Source of the DNA: Gemmatimonadota bacterium
GTDB taxonomy: Bacteria > Gemmatimonadota > Gemmatimonadetes > JACCXV01 > JAHWKZ01
Length of the DNA stretch: 64,000 nucleotides
NCBI GenBank assembly: GCA_035513155.1
Contig: DATKCO010000021.1
Location: 3,559-67,558, forward strand
Direction: 5' to 3'
The notes beneath the pieces are model-generated. The model made no database searches. It worked only from the letters and a program-made list of their open reading frames with translations, and was not told where the DNA came from. Below are positions 57,109 through 64,000 of the stretch, piece after piece. Numbering within the stretch: the first letter of the stretch is position 1; each line of letters opens with the position of its first letter. Position numbers and translations under genes: made by a program.

Positions 57109-59289
57109 CTACCCGCCGACTACGCGCCCGGTCTCGATCCCCATCTCGTGCGACCCGAAATACTCCCGCCGCTGGACGTCGAGGATTCCCTCGATCGACT
57201 TCATCGCCCCGACCACGCGGTTCAGGTGGCCGAGGTCCTTGACCTCGACCACGAAGGTGCCCTCGATCCCGGTCTCGTTCACGGTGAGATCGGCACTCTT
57301 GATGTCGGTCGACGTGCGCGAGACCGCGCCCGCCACGTCGGCGAACAGGCCCCGTCGGTCGGTCCCGGTCACGACCAGCCGCACGATGAACGTCTCGGCC
57401 CCCGAGGTGTCCCAGCGGACTTCGATCTTCCGCTCCGGCTCGTCGGTCAGGTTGAGGATGTTCGGGCAATCGGAGCGGTGGATCGACACCCCCCGTCCGC
57501 GGGTGATGTACCCCATGATCTCGTCCCCCGGGATCGGCTGGCAGCACTGGCTGAAGCGGACCATCATGTTGTCGACGCCCTGGATCTTGACGCCCTGCGG
57601 CCCACCCTTGATCCTCTCGACCAGTCGCTCGAAGGCCGTCGCGGGCTTCCGCTCGACCGCCTTCTCCTCCGGAAAGAGCACGTTCCAGACCTGCGTCAGG
57701 GTCAGATCTCCACGTCCGAGCGCCGCGTACAGCGCCTCGCCGTCCTGGAGGTGGAACTCGGCCGCCGTCTCGTCCAGCCGGTCGTCGTCCGGCCGCTTCA
57801 CGCGGTTCCGCCGATACTCCTTCTCGAGCAGCTCCTTCCCCAGCGCGAGCGAGCTGGCGTGCTCCTCCTCACGGATCGTCCGACGCACGATCTGCCGTGC
57901 CTTCGAGGTCTTGACGAAATGGAGCCAGTCCCGCGATGGCCGCTGATTCGCCTGGGTCATGATCTCGACGGTGTCTCCCGAGCGCAGCTCCTTGTGAAGC
58001 GGCACGATCCGGCCGTTCACCCGCGCGCCCGAGCAGTGCAGCCCGACTTCGCTGTGTACCTGGAAGGCGAAGTCGATGGCGGTCGATCCCGAGGGCAGCT
58101 GGACGAGGTCTCCCTTGGGAGTGAACACGAAGATCTCGTCCTTGTAGAGGTCGATCTTCAGGTATTCGAGGAACTCCTGCGGGTCGGTCATGTCCTGCTG
58201 CCACTCGAGGATCTGCCGGAACCACGCGAGCTGCTCCTCGATCTCCGTGCCCGTGCTCCCCTCCTTGTACTTCCAGTGGGCGGCGATCCCGACCTCGGCG
58301 GTGCGGTGCATCTCCCAGGTCCGGATCTGGATCTCGTACAGGGTTCCGGACGGCCCGTAGACGGTCGTGTGCAGGGACTGGTACATGTTCGACTTCGGGG
58401 TCGCGATGTAGTCCTTGAAGCGCTCATGAACGGGGGTCCACAGGGTGTGGATGATCCCCAGTGCGTGATAGCAGTCCCGAACGGTCTCGGTGAGCACACG
58501 GATCGCCAGCAGGTCGTAGATCTCGTCGTAGGGCTTGTTCCGTGCCTGCATCTTCTTGTGGATCGACCACAGATGCTTGGGCCGCCCCGCGATCTCCGCC
58601 GGCACACCCGCATCCTCCAGTGCCGTCTCGAGCGGGCGGCCGATCGCCGCGATCATACGCTCCCGCTCCTTGCGCTTGGCCTGGACCTTCTTCGCGAGCT
58701 CGCGATAGGCCTCCGCCTCCAGGAACTTGAAGGACAGGTCCTCGAGCTCCCAACGGATCGTGGCCATGCCGAAGCGGTGTGCGAGCGGAGCGTAGATGTC
58801 GCGCGTCTCGCTGGCGATCCGCCGTCGCTTCTCGTCCGGCAGGAATTCGAGCGTGCGCATGTTGTGGAGCCGGTCCGCGAGCTTGATCATGATGATCCGG
58901 ATGTCGCGGGCCATGGAAAGGAGCAGCTTGCGATAGTTCTCGACCTGCCGCTCCTCGCGCGACTGGAACCGCAGATGGCCGAGCTTCGTCAGCCCTTCCA
59001 CCAGGCTCGTCACCTCCCGACCGAATTCCACCTCCAGCCGCTCGAGGGTGACGTGCGTATCCTCGACGACGTCATGGAGCAGCGCCACCACGATCGTCGT
59101 CGTGTCGATCAGATGCAGGTCGAGGAGGATCCGGGCGATCTCCGCCGAGTGGGCCATGAAAGGCTCTCCCGACAGCCGCTTCTGGCCCGCGTGTGCCTCG
59201 TCCCCGAACGCGAACGCGCGCTCGATCATCGCCAGGTCGAGGCGATCCGCGTGGGGCTCGAGTGAGCGCAGGAAACGCTTCCGGTCCAT
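57109..59289 (-). CDS. relA: Bifunctional (p)ppGpp synthetase/hydrolase of the RelA/SpoT homologue family
   Basis: The start is taken at MDRKRFLRSLEPH. It has the HD hydrolase domain (HDVVEDT), the synthetase domain (YDLLAIRV, YQSLHTTV), and TGS, zinc-finger-like and ACT regions. Confidence 0.93.
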   Translation of the reverse strand: MDRKRFLRSLEPHADRLDLAMIERAFAFGDEAHAGQKRLSGEPFMAHSAEIARILLDLHLIDTTTIVVALLHDVVEDTHVTLERLEVEFGREVTSLVEGLTKLGHLRFQSREERQVENYRKLLLSMARDIRIIMIKLADRLHNMRTLEFLPDEKRRRIASETRDIYAPLAHRFGMATIRWELEDLSFKFLEAEAYRELAKKVQAKRKERERMIAAIGRPLETALEDAGVPAEIAGRPKHLWSIHKKMQARNKPYDEIYDLLAIRVLTETVRDCYHALGIIHTLWTPVHERFKDYIATPKSNMYQSLHTTVYGPSGTLYEIQIRTWEMHRTAEVGIAAHWKYKEGSTGTEIEEQLAWFRQILEWQQDMTDPQEFLEYLKIDLYKDEIFVFTPKGDLVQLPSGSTAIDFAFQVHSEVGLHCSGARVNGRIVPLHKELRSGDTVEIMTQANQRPSRDWLHFVKTSKARQIVRRTIREEEHASSLALGKELLEKEYRRNRVKRPDDDRLDETAAEFHLQDGEALYAALGRGDLTLTQVWNVLFPEEKAVERKPATAFERLVERIKGGPQGVKIQGVDNMMVRFSQCCQPIPGDEIMGYITRGRGVSIHRSDCPNILNLTDEPERKIEVRWDTSGAETFIVRLVVTGTDRRGLFADVAGAVSRTSTDIKSADLTVNETGIEGTFVVEVKDLGHLNRVVGAMKSIEGILDVQRREYFGSHEMGIETGRVVGG

Positions 59290-59382
59290 GACCCTAGAAT
59301 ACCTCCCCGGTGCCCGGAACGAAAAGCGCCGGCGCTCCACGGGGGAGCGCCGGCGTCCCTTCTCCGGCCGGGTGGACCGTCC

Positions 59383-59736
59383 CTACTTCACCGAGAACTC
59401 GACGAGCTTCTGGCTGACGTTCCACTTCGCTTCGAAGCTCTTCGCCTTCCCCGGCTTCACGCCGTAGGACTCCAGGAACTGGGAGCCGGAGACGTAGCGC
59501 CTCTGTCCTCCCTGCGGGGACTCGCGCAGCTTGTAGGACGCTTTGGTGGCCTTGGAGCGCGGCTTGAGACCCACCTTGCGACTCCGAGGATCGAACAGGA
59601 GCTCCACATGATTCGCCTTGTTGAACCAGGTCTCGTATGCAGCCGGACTGATCGAGAAGTCCCCACTCTTGAGAATTCGAATGGTAGATTTCCCGGCCGA
59701 CGGACCACGCTGAGGAACATAGGTTTCGAACGCCAT
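59383..59736 (-). CDS. Lysine-rich basic hypothetical protein of 117 aa in a lower-GC islet. It may be a nucleic-acid-binding or nucleoid-associated protein; that is speculative.
   Basis: The start is MAFETYVPQ, with a GGGAG ribosome-binding site about 8 nt upstream. The sequence is STIRILKSGDFSISPAAYETWFNKANHVELLFDPRSRKVGLKPRSKATKASYKLRE.... Local GC is clearly lower than the window average and the codon usage is atypical. Confidence 0.55.
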   Translation of the reverse strand: MAFETYVPQRGPSAGKSTIRILKSGDFSISPAAYETWFNKANHVELLFDPRSRKVGLKPRSKATKASYKLRESPQGGQRRYVSGSQFLESYGVKPGKAKSFEAKWNVSQKLVEFSVK

Positions 59737-59797
59737 CTCACACTCCCTTCTCACCAGATCCGGATTCTCCAATTCAGACACAGTCTGTACCCGGGTA

Positions 59798-59826
59798 GAT
59801 ATACGCTTGCCTTAGACAAGTTTCAA
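59798..59826 (-). promoter_or_regulatory. Near-consensus sigma70-type promoter, TTGAAA-17 nt-TATATC, reading toward the basic-protein gene.
   Basis: Read directly on the minus strand: TTGAAA at 59821..59826, a 17-nt spacer, then TATATC at 59798..59803. An AGGGAG ribosome-binding site follows about 55 nt downstream. Confidence 0.5.
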
Positions 59827-59846
59827 CAGGTCTTACAGAAGACCTG
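59827..59846 (-). terminator. Perfect 8-bp hairpin CAGGUCUU-cugu-AAGACCUG that overlaps the radC stop codon and is followed by UUGAAACUUGUCU. It is a possible radC terminator or attenuator.
   Basis: The inverted repeat was read directly (plus strand caggtcttacagaagacctg). The radC stop TAA sits at 59833..59835 within it. Confidence 0.4.
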
Positions 59847-60540
59847 CATCCTTAAAGGAGAAATACGAATCTGATCCGATAATCACATGATCGTGAAGCG
59901 GAATGTCGAGGATCCGGCCGGCCTCTCCGATGGCCCGCGTCACCTCGCGATCCTCGCGGCTCGGGGCTGGGTCCCCGGAGGGGTGATTGTGGACGATCAC
60001 CAGCCCCGCCGCCGCGCACGCCAGCGCCGGCTTGAACACCTCGCGGGGATGGACGATCGACGCGTTGAGGGAGCCCACGGAGACGACGACCTCCCGGACC
60101 AGCTCGTTGCGGGTGTTCAGGCACAGCGCCATGAACCGCTCGCGCTCGCGATCACGCAGCTCCAGCGAGAGATGTCTCCAGACCGCGCGCGGGGACGAGA
60201 GCATCGGCTGCCGCTCGCGCCGCTCCCGCTGCAACCGGCGGCCCAGCTCCAGGGCGGCGGCGACCCGGGCGGCGGTGGCGGCCCCCACACCATCGAGCCT
60301 GGCGAGATCGTCGACCCCCCTGCCCGCCAGCTGCCGCAGACCGGGGTAGGCCGCGGCCAGTCGACGAGCGATCTCGTCGGCGGGCCGGACGCGGTTGCCG
60401 CTCCCGATCAGGATCGTCAGCAACTCGACGGTCGAGAGCGCGCCCGCCCCCAGGCGACCGAGCCTCTCCCGAGGTCGATCCTCCACGGGCCATTCCTTGA
60501 TGGACAGGACAGATCCGCGCACGCGGACCGGAGAGTGCAA
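59833..60540 (-). CDS. radC: RadC-family JAB-domain protein (UPF0758)
   Basis: IKEWPVEDRPRERL, the HhH-like segment, and the JAMM motif HNHPSGDPAPSREDREVT. Confidence 0.9.
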   Translation of the reverse strand: MHSPVRVRGSVLSIKEWPVEDRPRERLGRLGAGALSTVELLTILIGSGNRVRPADEIARRLAAAYPGLRQLAGRGVDDLARLDGVGAATAARVAAALELGRRLQRERRERQPMLSSPRAVWRHLSLELRDRERERFMALCLNTRNELVREVVVSVGSLNASIVHPREVFKPALACAAAGLVIVHNHPSGDPAPSREDREVTRAIGEAGRILDIPLHDHVIIGSDSYFSFKDAGLL

Positions 60541-60575: not shown

Positions 60576-61718
60576 CTACTTGCTCATGCTGTCGAGCAGC
60601 TCCTGATTCGAGCGCGTGTGCTTGACCTTGTCGATCAGGAACTCCGCCGCATCCGTTGTCCGCATGTCGGACAGGAACCGGCGGAGCAACTGCAGGCGCT
60701 GGAGATGCTCCTCGGCGTACAGGAGCTCTTCCTTCCGCGTCCCGCTGGCCGTCACGTCGATGGCCGGCCAGATCCGCTGGTCCGCGAGCTCCCGCGCGAG
60801 GACGATCTCGGCGTTACCCGTGCCCTTGAACTCCTCGAATATCACCTCGTCCGCGCGGCTTCCGGTATCGATGAGCGCGGTAGCGATGATCGTTAGGCTT
60901 CCCCCACGATCCCCCACGACCTTGCGGGCCGACCCGAAGAACCGCTTCGGGGCCTCCAGGGCTCCGGCCTCGATGCCCCCCGACAGGGTCCGGCCGCTGG
61001 AACGCTCGATCGAGTTGTAGGCTCGCGCCAGCCGTGTGATGGAGTCCAGCACGAGCACGACGTCCTTCCCGGACTCGACCAGCCGCCGGGCGCGCTCGAG
61101 CGCCATCTCGGCGACCTGGACGTGCCGGTCGGGAGGGAAATCGAAGGACGAGGCCACCGTCTCTCCGCGCCCGATCTTCTCGATCATGCGCTGCATCTCG
61201 GTGACCTCCTCGGGCCGCTCGTCGACCAGCAGCACGATCAGCTCGGCGTCGGGGTAGTTCACCGCCACGCCGGTCATCACCGACTGCAGCAGCATGGTCT
61301 TCCCGGCCTTCGACGGCGCCACGATCAGCGCCCGCTGGCCCTTGCCCAGCGGCACGACGAGGTCGAGGATGCGGTTGGTCACTCCCGCCCCGTTGACCGC
61401 CTCCGCGGCCTTATCGTCGAGGATCTCGAGAGTCAGGCGCTCGTCGGGGTGGGTGGCGCGCAGCTGGTCGAACTTCGGGCGGGAGCGCGCCTCCTCCGGC
61501 GGGACCCCGTTCACGCTGGTCACGCTCTTGAGCGGCGGCAGCTTCCCGCGACCCGGTGGCGATCCGATCTCGCCATCGATCGCGTCTCCCTTCCGCAGCC
61601 CGTACTGATCGATGAGCCGCGCCGGCACGTATACGTCGTCGTCCCCGGGCAAATAGGCGTTCTCTTTGCGTCGCAGGATTCCGGCGCCGCCAGACAGGCG
61701 GTCGAGCACTCCGATCAT
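60576..61718 (-). CDS. rho: Transcription termination factor Rho, 380 aa. It starts at the OB-fold (cold-shock domain) and lacks the usual N-terminal three-helix bundle of about 45 aa.
   Basis: The start MIGVLDRLSGGAGILRRKENAYLPGDDDVYV has a GGAGGA ribosome-binding site, and only 67 nt separate it from the secA stop. P-loop APSKAGKT, plus the Q and R loops. The upstream part of the track ORF is Arg-rich artefact. Confidence 0.9.
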   Translation of the reverse strand: MIGVLDRLSGGAGILRRKENAYLPGDDDVYVPARLIDQYGLRKGDAIDGEIGSPPGRGKLPPLKSVTSVNGVPPEEARSRPKFDQLRATHPDERLTLEILDDKAAEAVNGAGVTNRILDLVVPLGKGQRALIVAPSKAGKTMLLQSVMTGVAVNYPDAELIVLLVDERPEEVTEMQRMIEKIGRGETVASSFDFPPDRHVQVAEMALERARRLVESGKDVVLVLDSITRLARAYNSIERSSGRTLSGGIEAGALEAPKRFFGSARKVVGDRGGSLTIIATALIDTGSRADEVIFEEFKGTGNAEIVLARELADQRIWPAIDVTASGTRKEELLYAEEHLQRLQLLRRFLSDMRTTDAAEFLIDKVKHTRSNQELLDSMSK

Positions 61719-61785
61719 CTTCGATGTCCTCCGATCGAGAAGTCCATTCTCTCGTTGGGTCCGTGGCGCCTCGGCCGGACGGCCG

Positions 61786-64000
61786 TCACGCGCCGTGACA
61801 TTTCTTGTACTTCTTGCCGCTCCCACACGGGCAGGGGTCGTTGCGACCGATCTTCTCGCCCTCCCGGACGAACGTGTCGGGGCTCTCGCTCGCGGCCTGA
61901 CTCGATGCGGGTTCCGTCCCACCGCCGCTCACCGGACCCGGCAGACCCGCGGTCCCGGTAGCGGTCCCGCCGGCCGTGGCTCCGGCCATGGCCGGCGCCG
62001 CGCTGTGCATCGCGATCTGCTGCCGCTGCATTCGCTCGCGCCGGCGCCTGTCCTCGGCGGACATCGCGCGCGGATCGACGATCTGGACCCGGAACAGCAT
62101 CTGGGTAGCGCTCGAGCGCAGGTCGTCCATCATCTCGACGAACATCTCGTAAGCTTCCTTCTTGTACTCGATGAGGGGATCGCGCTGTCCCCAGGCCCGG
62201 TACTGGATCCCGCTCTTCAGCTGGTCGAGCTCGTAGAGATGATCCCGCCATTTCTCGTCGATGACGCGCAGCAGGACCTGGCGCACGACGAGCTCGGCCC
62301 GTTCGGGCTCCCACTCCTCGACGCGCCGGTCGAACGCCTCCTCCAGCTCCGACACGACCCGCCCCGCGACCCCCTCCCCCGTCCCCGGCAGGTCCTCTTC
62401 CTCGGGATCGGGACCGGACTCCTCCTGCGACAGCCGGTCGAGCCAGTCGAACGGCAGCAGGTAGGTCCGCATGAGCTCTTCCTTGAGGCCTGCCAGATCC
62501 CAGCTGTCGGCGTAGGCCTCCGGATCCATGAACAGCGAGATCTTCTCCTCGGCCGCGTCACGGATGATCTCCTTCGCCTCGGCGAAGACCTCGTCCTTAT
62601 CCCCCTCGAGCGCGCGCAGGCGCATCGCGTAGATCACCTCGCGCTGCTTGTTCATCACGTCGTCGTACTCGAGCAGACGCTTGCGGATCTCGAAGTTGTT
62701 GAGCTCGACCTTCTTCTGGGCCCGCTCGATCGACCGGGTGACGAGCGAGTGGGTGATCACCTCCCCCTCCTCGGCGCCCATCCGGTCCATGACGCTGGCG
62801 ATCCGGTCGGAGCTGAACAGACGCATGAGATCGTCCTCGAGCGACAGGAAGAAGCGCGACGATCCCGGGTCCCCCTGCCGGCCGGAGCGCCCCCGGAGCT
62901 GCCGGTCGATGCGCCTCGACTCGTGCCGCTCGGTGCCCACGATGTGGAGCCCCCACGGCATGTCCTCTTCGATCACTGCCTCGACCTCGCCCTGGGTCAC
63001 GCCCTCGGGGAGCTCGTCCTCGTGCACCTCCGGCCACGCGCGCGGCACCACCCCCGGACCGAGCTTGATGTCGGTTCCGCGTCCGGCCATGTTGGTCGCG
63101 ATCGTCGCCGCGCCCGGCTGACCGGCCCGGGCTACGATCTCCGCTTCGCGCTGGTGATGCTTCGCGTTCAGCACGTTGTGCGGGAGGTTGCGGCGCTTGA
63201 GCAGGCGGGAGAGGGTCTCCGACACCTCGACCGATACCGTCCCGACCAGCACCGGCCGGCCGCGCTGGTGCTCGCGCTCGATCTCGTCGATGATCGCGTT
63301 GTACTTCTCCCGGCGGGTCTTGTAGACCATGTCCTCGTAGTCCTGCCGCCGGACCGGCCGGTTGGTGGGGATCACGACCACGTCCATCTTGTAGATCTGC
63401 CAGAACTCCCCCTCTTCGGTCTCGGCCGTCCCGGTCATCCCCGCGAGCTTGTCGTACATGCGGTAGTAGTTCTGGATCGTGATCGTAGCCAGCGTCTGGG
63501 TCTCGCCCTCGATCTGGACGTTCTCCTTGGCCTCGATCGCCTGATGCATGCCCTCGGAGTACCGGCGCCCCGGCATCAGCCGACCCGTGAACTGGTCGAC
63601 GATGAGGACCTTGCCGTCCTGCACCACGTATTCGACATCCTTCTCGTAGAGCGCGTATGCCTTGATCAACTGACTGATGTTGTGAATCGTCTCGCTCTTC
63701 TCCGCGTACTCCCGCTCGAGCTCGAGACGGCGGGCGCTCATCTCCTCCTCGGAGAGCGAGGGATCCGTGTCGATCTCGTGCATCAGCTGGGAGAGATCGG
63801 GAACCACGAACAGGTCGGGCTGATTGGGGGCGATCTTCACCCGGCCGTCGTCGGTGAGATGGGCGTCGTGCCCCTTCTCGTCCATCGCGAACAGCAGTGC
63901 CTCGTCGAGCTCGTGCGCCCGCTTCTCGCGCATGTAGTCGGCTTCCACCTTCTGGACCAGCTTCTTGATCCCGGGCTCGTTGAGGATCTTCATCAGCCGG
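61786..64000 (-). CDS. secA: Preprotein translocase ATPase SecA. This is the C-terminal roughly 735 aa; the 5' end lies beyond the window.
   Basis: The helicase-like NBD2/HSD/HWD regions and the C-terminal zinc-binding motif [14 protein letters not shown] are present. The ORF is open to the window edge. Confidence 0.93.

Follow-up and report, generated by a model that had tools for sequence, protein, structure and literature searches.

Does a sharp fall in GC content within a GC-rich bacterial genome betray foreign DNA, and what does the gene found there encode? The question is raised by a single locus in the 64,000-nucleotide stretch of a Gemmatimonadota genome analysed here (the window), in which a gene that we call X (positions 59383–59736, minus strand, ATG start, TAG stop at 59385–59383 included) specifies a basic protein of 117 residues between radC and relA/spoT. 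An initial annotation, made from the sequence alone, took this locus to be a lower-GC islet and its product to be a small basic protein, either horizontally acquired or highly expressed. The evidence assembled below points to another origin and to a more specific product. With a probability that we place at about 0.5, X is a vertically inherited gene of a Gemmatimonadota clade, transcribed as a monocistronic unit, whose product is a single-chain AbrB/B3-like protein that most likely binds DNA.

Conservation of X and of its chromosomal position

A word-indexed protein search retrieved 74 homologues of X at 50–97% identity, nearly all of 116–118 residues and beginning at the same start residue, together with one fragmentary homologue covering 37% of the query; those that carry a name are hypothetical proteins of Gemmatimonadota metagenome-assembled genomes (MAGs). 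A scan in which each GTDB species was represented by one genome, and which relied upon two conserved peptide patterns and may therefore miss more divergent orthologues, located X in 26 species, all of them Gemmatimonadota MAGs. In each of the 24 full-length loci among these the order is Rho–RadC–X–RelA/SpoT, and wherever contigs were long enough it extends to secA–rho–radC–X–relA/spoT–lolA–uvrB–tsaE. Identity across loci is 61–83% for X, compared to 76–91% for RelA, 73–88% for RadC, 80–97% for Rho and 47–82% for LolA, and the ratio of nonsynonymous to synonymous substitution rates (dN/dS) of X is 0.07–0.31, with dS saturated. X is a real coding gene under purifying selection, co-diverging with its neighbours and not unusually conserved; the notion that it might be exceptionally conserved was rejected, since RelA, RadC and Rho are all better conserved. 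No paralogue of X was found within the window.

The reading frame of X can be extended upstream to a GTG at 59781, giving a form of 132 residues, yet this is an artefact of the open reading frame (ORF) caller, as every orthologue starts with the motif M-[AGP]-[FY]-E, located right after the Shine-Dalgarno site. The resulting protein has an isoelectric point (pI) of 10.2, and its composition departs from that of the reference set used throughout, 25 long ORFs of the window with high GC at third codon positions (GC3). Of the three residues in which it had been described as rich, Lys (12.0% vs 3.2% in the reference ORFs) and Ser (12.8% vs 5.0%) are indeed enriched, while Thr is not (3.4% vs 4.8%); Phe and Tyr contribute a further 6% and 4%.

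Three retrieved proteins, P0076 (280 residues), P0072 (151 residues, PF01503) and P0073 (87 residues), join an unrelated N-terminus to the C-terminal part of X, and are apparently chimeric or truncated calls. P0073 bears the sole non-Gemmatimonadota label, that of a Gammaproteobacteria MAG, probably an artefact of assembly or binning.

Predicted fold and its relation to AbrB and B3 domains

The fold of X was predicted with confidence by AlphaFold2, using either the orthologue alignment (predicted local distance difference test, pLDDT, 87; predicted template modelling score, pTM, 0.76) or a 117-sequence family alignment (pLDDT 91, pTM 0.80). In both models an N-terminal arm, conserved and less confidently predicted, leads into two beta-beta-alpha-beta-beta units, with strands 18–21 and 26/27–29, helix 31–38, and strands 43–49 and 54–60 in the first unit, and strands 67–69 and 80–83, helix 85–90, and strands 99–106 and 111–115 in the second. 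Compared by hhalign, the N half of the family pairs with its C half (P = 0.005) in a register that agrees with the predicted secondary structure, suggestive of an internal duplication in the X family.

Monomers of AbrB-like proteins are beta-beta-alpha-beta-beta units, which reportedly dimerise into a swapped-hairpin barrel. When PDB sequences were searched with the orthologue profile (A1) no match was obtained, and the family profile (A2) gave seven HMMER matches, all below threshold, with the AbrB regulators 5itj and 2l66 at ranks 3–4 (E ~0.9); in these two alignments residues 16–63 of the X family cover the whole 54-residue AbrB domain. Against a comparison profile built from 73 Sso7c4-type PF04014 proteins, hhalign matched the N half of the family over the whole 47-column domain with a probability of 77% (P = 2e-5), the C half over the last hairpin with a probability of 8.5% (P = 0.004), and the full family with P = 1.4e-4. 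Pfam PF04014 itself gave no match to X at E <= 10, and was absent from the 25 most-matched of the 38 families recorded for 117 members at E <= 1. Inclusion of X in an AbrB-like superfold is moderately supported. Features shared with the AbrB/MazE/SpoVT proteins (PF04014; Sso7c4, 5itj, 2l66) include the predicted unit of ~48 residues (N half, residues 16–63), the succession of a hydrophobic strand, D, a turn and a hydrophobic strand ending in P/K, and a small, basic chain. On the other hand, X would fuse two such units in one chain rather than form a homodimer, the C-terminal one has diverged strongly (P = 0.004), the protein lies below the Pfam threshold, and AbrB offers no counterpart to its conserved N-terminal arm (MAFETYVPQRG) or to its SPQGG-RRY loop.

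Comparison of the models with solved structures led to a second fold. Foldseek found nothing in the PDB at E <= 1e-3, and the only PDB matches with a template modelling (TM) score above 0.35 in both models were the plant B3 domains of TEM1 (7et6), VRN1 (4i1k), RAV1 (1wid), VAL1 and LEC2, with probabilities of up to 0.75 and TM scores of 0.36–0.46. A further B3 domain, FUS3 (6j9b), was matched at a TM score of 0.26, and every other PDB match among the best 50 had a TM score of 0.30 or less. SCOP notes a partial similarity between the swapped-hairpin AbrB fold and the B3 pseudobarrel. The B3-like fold is a seven-stranded barrel with helices capping both ends, and its N- and C-arms grip the major groove (PMC3973309). 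With this pseudobarrel (plant B3, EcoRII-N, BfiI-C; SCOP 101935) the modelled X shares a single-chain design, two helices and a length of ~110 residues, and it differs in having no Pfam B3, EcoRII-N or BfiI_DBD match and in being a bacterial protein that stands alone, not part of a plant transcription factor or restriction enzyme. A parallel in design is offered by MraZ, a DNA-binding regulator built as a tandem fusion of two SpoVT/AbrB-like units, an arrangement of two units in one chain that X is predicted to share. X nevertheless has no Pfam or NCBIfam MraZ match, MraZ is not among its Foldseek matches, and X is shorter (117 residues) and does not head a dcw cluster, its neighbours being radC and relA/spoT.

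The best structural matches anywhere were among predicted viral structures (BFVD), where nine were found at E <= 1e-3 with a probability of 1.0, headed by gp105 of Lactococcus phage KSY1 (TM 0.68, E = 2e-5), whose gene follows that of RNase HI in the phage replication module. These phage proteins, which also include those of Bacillus phage Mgbh1 and of Klebsiella phages, are similar to X in size; their sequence similarity to it is marginal (as judged for KSY1 gp105 against the family profile), cultured phages gave no tblastn match, and they offer no mechanism. Judging by profiles and models, X comes from an undescribed family and would be a new, tandem kind of AbrB/B3-type nucleic-acid-binding barrel, made from one chain.

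The wider family and its genomic contexts

A hidden Markov model (HMM) search with the orthologue profile, which covered 1.84 billion cluster representatives exhaustively, recovered 908 clusters (50% identity) at E <= 1e-3, or 143 when the limit is tightened to E <= 1e-10, and most of the 150 members listed are 112–125 residues long. The family is characterized by an N-terminal MAFExF, the signature h-h-[FY]-D-x5-[IV]-G-[ILV]-[KR]-P, and a C-terminal W-N/D, the signature being present in 95 of 160 retrieved relatives. X, which reads ELLFDPRSRKVGLKP at this position, shows both a full-length HMM match and the signature of this unnamed 'MAFExF...YD-x5-IGIKP...WN' family, defined here. Searches of X against Pfam, NCBIfam, PHROGs, PADLOC and PDB sequences returned no significant match, so that its earlier assignment to an unknown family holds and the mundane conserved family that might have explained it away was not encountered; nor did any of 117 sampled family members significantly match a curated family. 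Isolated weak matches, of one member each, were to the Pfam BfiI DNA-binding domain (E = 0.025) and to a model of type II restriction enzymes (E = 5e-4), and eight of the 117 family-alignment members match PHROGs of unknown function (18159, 36252, 1799). A literature search on pseudobarrel or AbrB-like phage proteins and on Gemmatimonadota nucleoid proteins found nothing on the X family.

Some members contain more than one copy of the domain. P0078, P0168 and P0176 (254–260 residues) are two-copy tandems of the X family, and P0111 (680 residues, Logan/ENA contigs) has four family domains interleaved with weak Pfam matches of helix-turn-helix type.

The surroundings of distant members were examined in several cases. 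In IMG/VR, a single contig found with the hand-made degenerate pattern YYD-x5-IGIKP contains a member (family HMM 2.5e-12) that immediately follows a DnaB-like helicase, with a DNA methyltransferase ~1.7 kb away. Members P0234 and P0220 (L037 3190–3534 and L038 2232–2576, respectively) lie head-to-head with a MethyltransfD12 (Dam-type) gene, in surroundings that comprise small ORFs, a NUMOD4 protein and ThyA. Each of these two is a lone plus-strand gene amid small minus-strand ORFs, a layout like that of a phage repressor or regulator. A widespread Nitrospinota member is found amid tiny ORFs, and on the longest contig genes for a PDDEXK nuclease and a Mu-type transposase lie ~3–5 kb away from it; one further member adjoins a glycosyltransferase cluster. 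No partner gene recurs beside family members in the contexts examined. Neither a tblastn search of 50,697 phage genomes with X and a distant relative nor a relative search from P0220 alone gave a viral counterpart, the former having no match at all. Overall, the distant members sampled reside mostly in phage or mobile-element regions devoted to DNA metabolism and early-gene functions, and because of this the Gemmatimonadota X has the look of a branch that became fixed in the chromosome, within a family that is mostly mobile and from which we infer that the chromosomal gene derives.

Expression signals and neighbouring genes

X is equipped with predicted expression signals, several of which had been recognized in the initial annotation and are borne out by comparison with orthologues. 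The Shine-Dalgarno sequence AGGGAG (59743–59748, minus strand) is found 6 nt 5' of the ATG, and its GGAG core is kept in 21 of 21 aligned upstream regions, with two columns invariant and two nearly so. Further upstream, a promoter-like pair (59798–59826, minus strand) is formed by TTGAAA (59826–59821), a 17-nt spacer and TATATC (59803–59798). A strict consensus scan made no promoter call here, TATATC having no T at its sixth position, but the predicted promoter is supported by its positional conservation, since ~16 of 25 orthologous loci have a TTGAAx-17-(TGg)TATATx pair located -78 to -101 relative to the start codon. Transcription would start near 59791, leaving a leader of ~55 nt (59737–59791, minus strand). 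The 73-nt stretch that contains this leader and the first 17 nt of the coding sequence (59792–59720) is poorly structured, with a z score of +1.05 and 178 of 200 shuffles folding at least as well.

Two hairpins that had been singled out are present, and both were ruled out as meaningful features. These are the CAGAC-TGT-GTCTG hairpin (59787–59775) within the leader and a perfect 7-bp inverted repeat, AGGTCTT-CTGT-AAGACCT (59828–59845, minus strand), which spans the radC stop codon and lies outside the X unit. Hairpins of these kinds are at chance level, the window containing 919 with 5-bp stems (14 per kb) and 105 that are perfect over 7 bp with 3–8-nt loops (1.6 per kb), and neither one is conserved in the aligned upstream regions of orthologous loci. 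On the other hand, the earlier reading missed an intrinsic terminator (59318–59355, minus strand, from a terminator scan), in which a 12-bp GC-rich stem (59355–59327) is followed by CTTTTCGTTC, and which folds at -48.5 kcal/mol (z = -4.1). A GC-rich stem followed by a T run was also seen by eye downstream of X in two other distinct locus groups, L001–L003 and L004–L006. Taken from these signals, X is most likely a monocistronic unit. An Rfam scan of 59000–60200 found no riboswitch or leader family; a match to the CcsR1 small RNA at 59298–59361 (plus strand, opposite the X terminator) scored 18.8 bits against a gathering threshold of 65.3 (E = 0.09), and most likely reflects only the GC-rich palindrome of the terminator.

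The position of the start codon is fixed among orthologues, always 6–8 nt past the GGAG core, and the codon itself varies. It is ATG in the window (59734–59736), GTG in L010, L014 and L016, and TTG in L011–L013 and L015, lying at position 4001 in L010–L013, L015 and L016 and at 1157 in L014.

Upstream of X lies radC (59833–60540, minus strand, TAA stop at 59835–59833), which encodes a UPF0758_N and a RadC JAB domain (Pfam E = 7.7e-44), and downstream, past the X terminator, lies relA/spoT (57109–59292, minus strand), in which Pfam identified HD_4, RelA_SpoT, TGS and ACT_4. Rho was likewise confirmed by Pfam near the locus. Its longest ORF (60576–61922, minus strand) would encode 448 residues with an Arg/Ala-rich N-terminal extension of ~70 residues, compared to 379–412 residues in related loci; extended Rho N-termini do exist in some bacteria, and the true start in the window is probably internal to this ORF.

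Possible functions of X

Combining these elements, the following mechanism may be envisaged. Inserted between radC and relA/spoT, X would be transcribed alone from a sigma-70-like promoter, through a ~55-nt poorly structured leader with a strong Shine-Dalgarno sequence and 117 codons, to an intrinsic terminator. Its product would be a single-chain pseudo-dimer of two beta-beta-alpha-beta-beta units, the building block of the AbrB/MazE/SpoVT swapped-hairpin barrels, whose tandem fusion could produce a B3-like pseudobarrel. This barrel may bind DNA, whether to regulate transcription or to act as a nucleoid-associated protein. By analogy, X most likely does bind DNA, since the families sharing its predicted architecture do so, and its role may likewise be that of a lineage-specific transcription regulator or nucleoid-associated protein. 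The suggestion that this small basic protein is a nucleoid-associated or stress protein is thus plausible, and becomes more specific in its DNA-binding version because of the predicted AbrB/B3-like fold. HU/IHF, H-NS, Fis and Lsr2 offer a functional analogy only; like X they are small and basic, and X resembles them in its own predicted promoter and terminator and its AT-rich promoter region, but no relationship to X in sequence or fold exists.

Several observations weigh against this assignment. The B3 fold matches are sub-significant, with E = 0.14–0.18, TM scores of 0.42–0.46 (below 0.5) and 9–18% identity, while the similarity to AbrB comes from a single targeted profile–profile comparison of moderate probability, in which the P values are meaningful and not conclusive. 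No curated family or solved structure matches X significantly. An operator-like repeat common to orthologues was not seen by eye in the upstream alignment, for which no motif search was run. Were X a core chromatin protein of great abundance, two findings would be unexpected: its sequence changes somewhat faster than those of the neighbouring RelA and Rho, and GTG or TTG serves as the start codon in nine of the 24 orthologues, the latter arguing against a uniformly very high rate of translation. Finally, the AbrB fold is not exclusive to DNA-binding proteins, and includes RNA-cleaving toxins such as SymE.

A more far-reaching version of the DNA-binding proposal is that a single-chain AbrB/B3-like protein borne by a phage or mobile element was captured by the ancestor of the clade and fixed beside relA/spoT as a global DNA-binding protein. 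Perhaps linked to the physiology of stress or of the stringent response, X might then be a master regulator or a nucleoid-associated protein of a new type. We regard this version as doubtful.

Function at the level of RNA is a less probable alternative, and we consider it quite unlikely that X is an RNA-binding or ribosome-associated basic protein working with RelA/SpoT or Rho, for example as an accessory factor in translation or hibernation. It would account for the high pI of 10.2, for the invariant adjacency to relA/spoT and proximity to rho, and for expression signals that look strong, and the action of some AbrB-fold proteins (SymE) on RNA provides a precedent. However, X and relA are not co-transcribed, judging by the strong terminator between them, no similarity to ribosomal or RNA-binding families was found, the distant relatives examined occur in DNA-metabolism and mobile contexts without relA, and the fold matches are to DNA-binding domains.

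The phage and mobile-element contexts of the wider family raise the further possibility that X is what remains of a mobile element after domestication, retaining a function in genetic conflict, such as an orphan antitoxin or toxin of AbrB fold, a superinfection-exclusion factor or an anti-restriction factor. AbrB/MazE domains are, as the naming of PF04014 implies, typical DNA-binding modules of antitoxins, and RadC-like genes are common on mobile elements. Yet the radC found here is of the chromosomal UPF0758_N + JAB form, no partner gene is conserved beside X in any context and X appears monocistronic at this locus, PADLOC returned no matches, and synteny across the clade together with purifying selection fits a housekeeping or regulatory role better, leaving this explanation improbable. 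Like recent transfer of an islet, to which we now turn, the RelA/Rho partner and the conflict remnant are less well supported than a DNA-binding barrel.

Origin of the low GC content

The visibly lower GC between relA/spoT and radC that first drew attention to the locus is real. Positions 59500–60000 (a stretch without strand assignment, covering the 5' two-thirds of X, the intergenic DNA between radC and X, and the final ~170 nt of radC) are the sole part of the window in which GC in 300-nt windows falls under 0.57. At the minimum (300-nt window at 59601) GC is 0.493, compared to a mean of 0.704 (standard deviation 0.045), a dip far in excess of chance. The X gene itself has a GC content of 0.59 (0.593; GC1 0.525, GC2 0.458 and GC3 0.788 at the three codon positions), compared to 0.686 (GC3 0.903) in the reference ORFs, and a score resembling the codon adaptation index (CAI) of 0.544, under those of all 25 (0.64–0.85).

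Given its own amino acids and the codon usage of the window, X would be expected to have a GC content of 0.636, so that about half of its deficit relative to the background (0.686) is due to a composition rich in Lys, Ser, Phe and Tyr. The remainder arises from low GC3 in the first ~60 codons, as seen when GC3 is followed along X in steps of 20 codons (0.50, 0.75, 0.70, 0.85, 1.00, 0.94), with values in the 3' half (0.85–1.0) equal to the genome background. In the 24 orthologues a consistently low GC3 is confined to codons 1–20 (0.66, vs 0.78–0.88 in later 20-codon bins), and the local pattern, a gene lower in GC than its locus and 150 upstream nucleotides at 0.41–0.55, recurs in all 24 orthologous loci. 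The 5'-to-3' gradient of GC3, compared within X genes only, is marked in X and milder in its 24 orthologues. The low-GC stretch extends into radC because the last ~20 codons of that gene (HVIIGSDSYFSFKDAGLL; 59833–59900 in the window), which are well conserved across loci at the nucleotide level, are AT-rich. The simplest reading of the dip is an AT-rich promoter together with start-proximal codons by which the region of translation initiation is kept open, and not foreign DNA.

It is accordingly most improbable that X is a recently acquired horizontal islet of foreign low-GC DNA with its own promoter: though X occupies the lowest-GC spot of the 64 kb, has the low CAI-like score given above, and has distant relatives in phage-like or mobile contexts, the radC–relA slot is identical in 24 of 24 loci spanning RelA identities of 76–91%, X diverges along with its neighbours under purifying selection, GC3 in its 3' half is that of the background, amino-acid composition explains about half of the deficit, the GC pattern recurs in orthologues, and neither the list of ORFs nor the Pfam results for the surrounding genes showed a flanking integrase, tRNA or repeat, no scan aimed at tRNAs or repeats having been run. 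The locus therefore exhibits neither the patchy presence, nor the composition atypical throughout, nor the bordering mobility genes of an islet, and any acquisition of X would predate the clade.

Implications

A sharp low-GC dip in a genome of ~70% GC need not, then, denote foreign DNA, and may reflect the amino acids that a protein uses, together with a promoter and start-proximal codons that are rich in AT. Should the proposed fold and function be correct, X would represent an unannotated family, comprising at least 908 clusters at 50% identity without a Pfam, NCBIfam or PDB entry, in which two AbrB-like half-barrels are fused into a B3-like single chain. Such a family, found in bacteria and phages, would connect the AbrB/MazE regulators, which are dimers, with the B3 domains of plants and restriction enzymes, which are monomeric. 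For the Gemmatimonadota, a phylum in which to our knowledge almost no molecular genetics has been done, X would then be a candidate lineage-specific chromatin protein or regulator.

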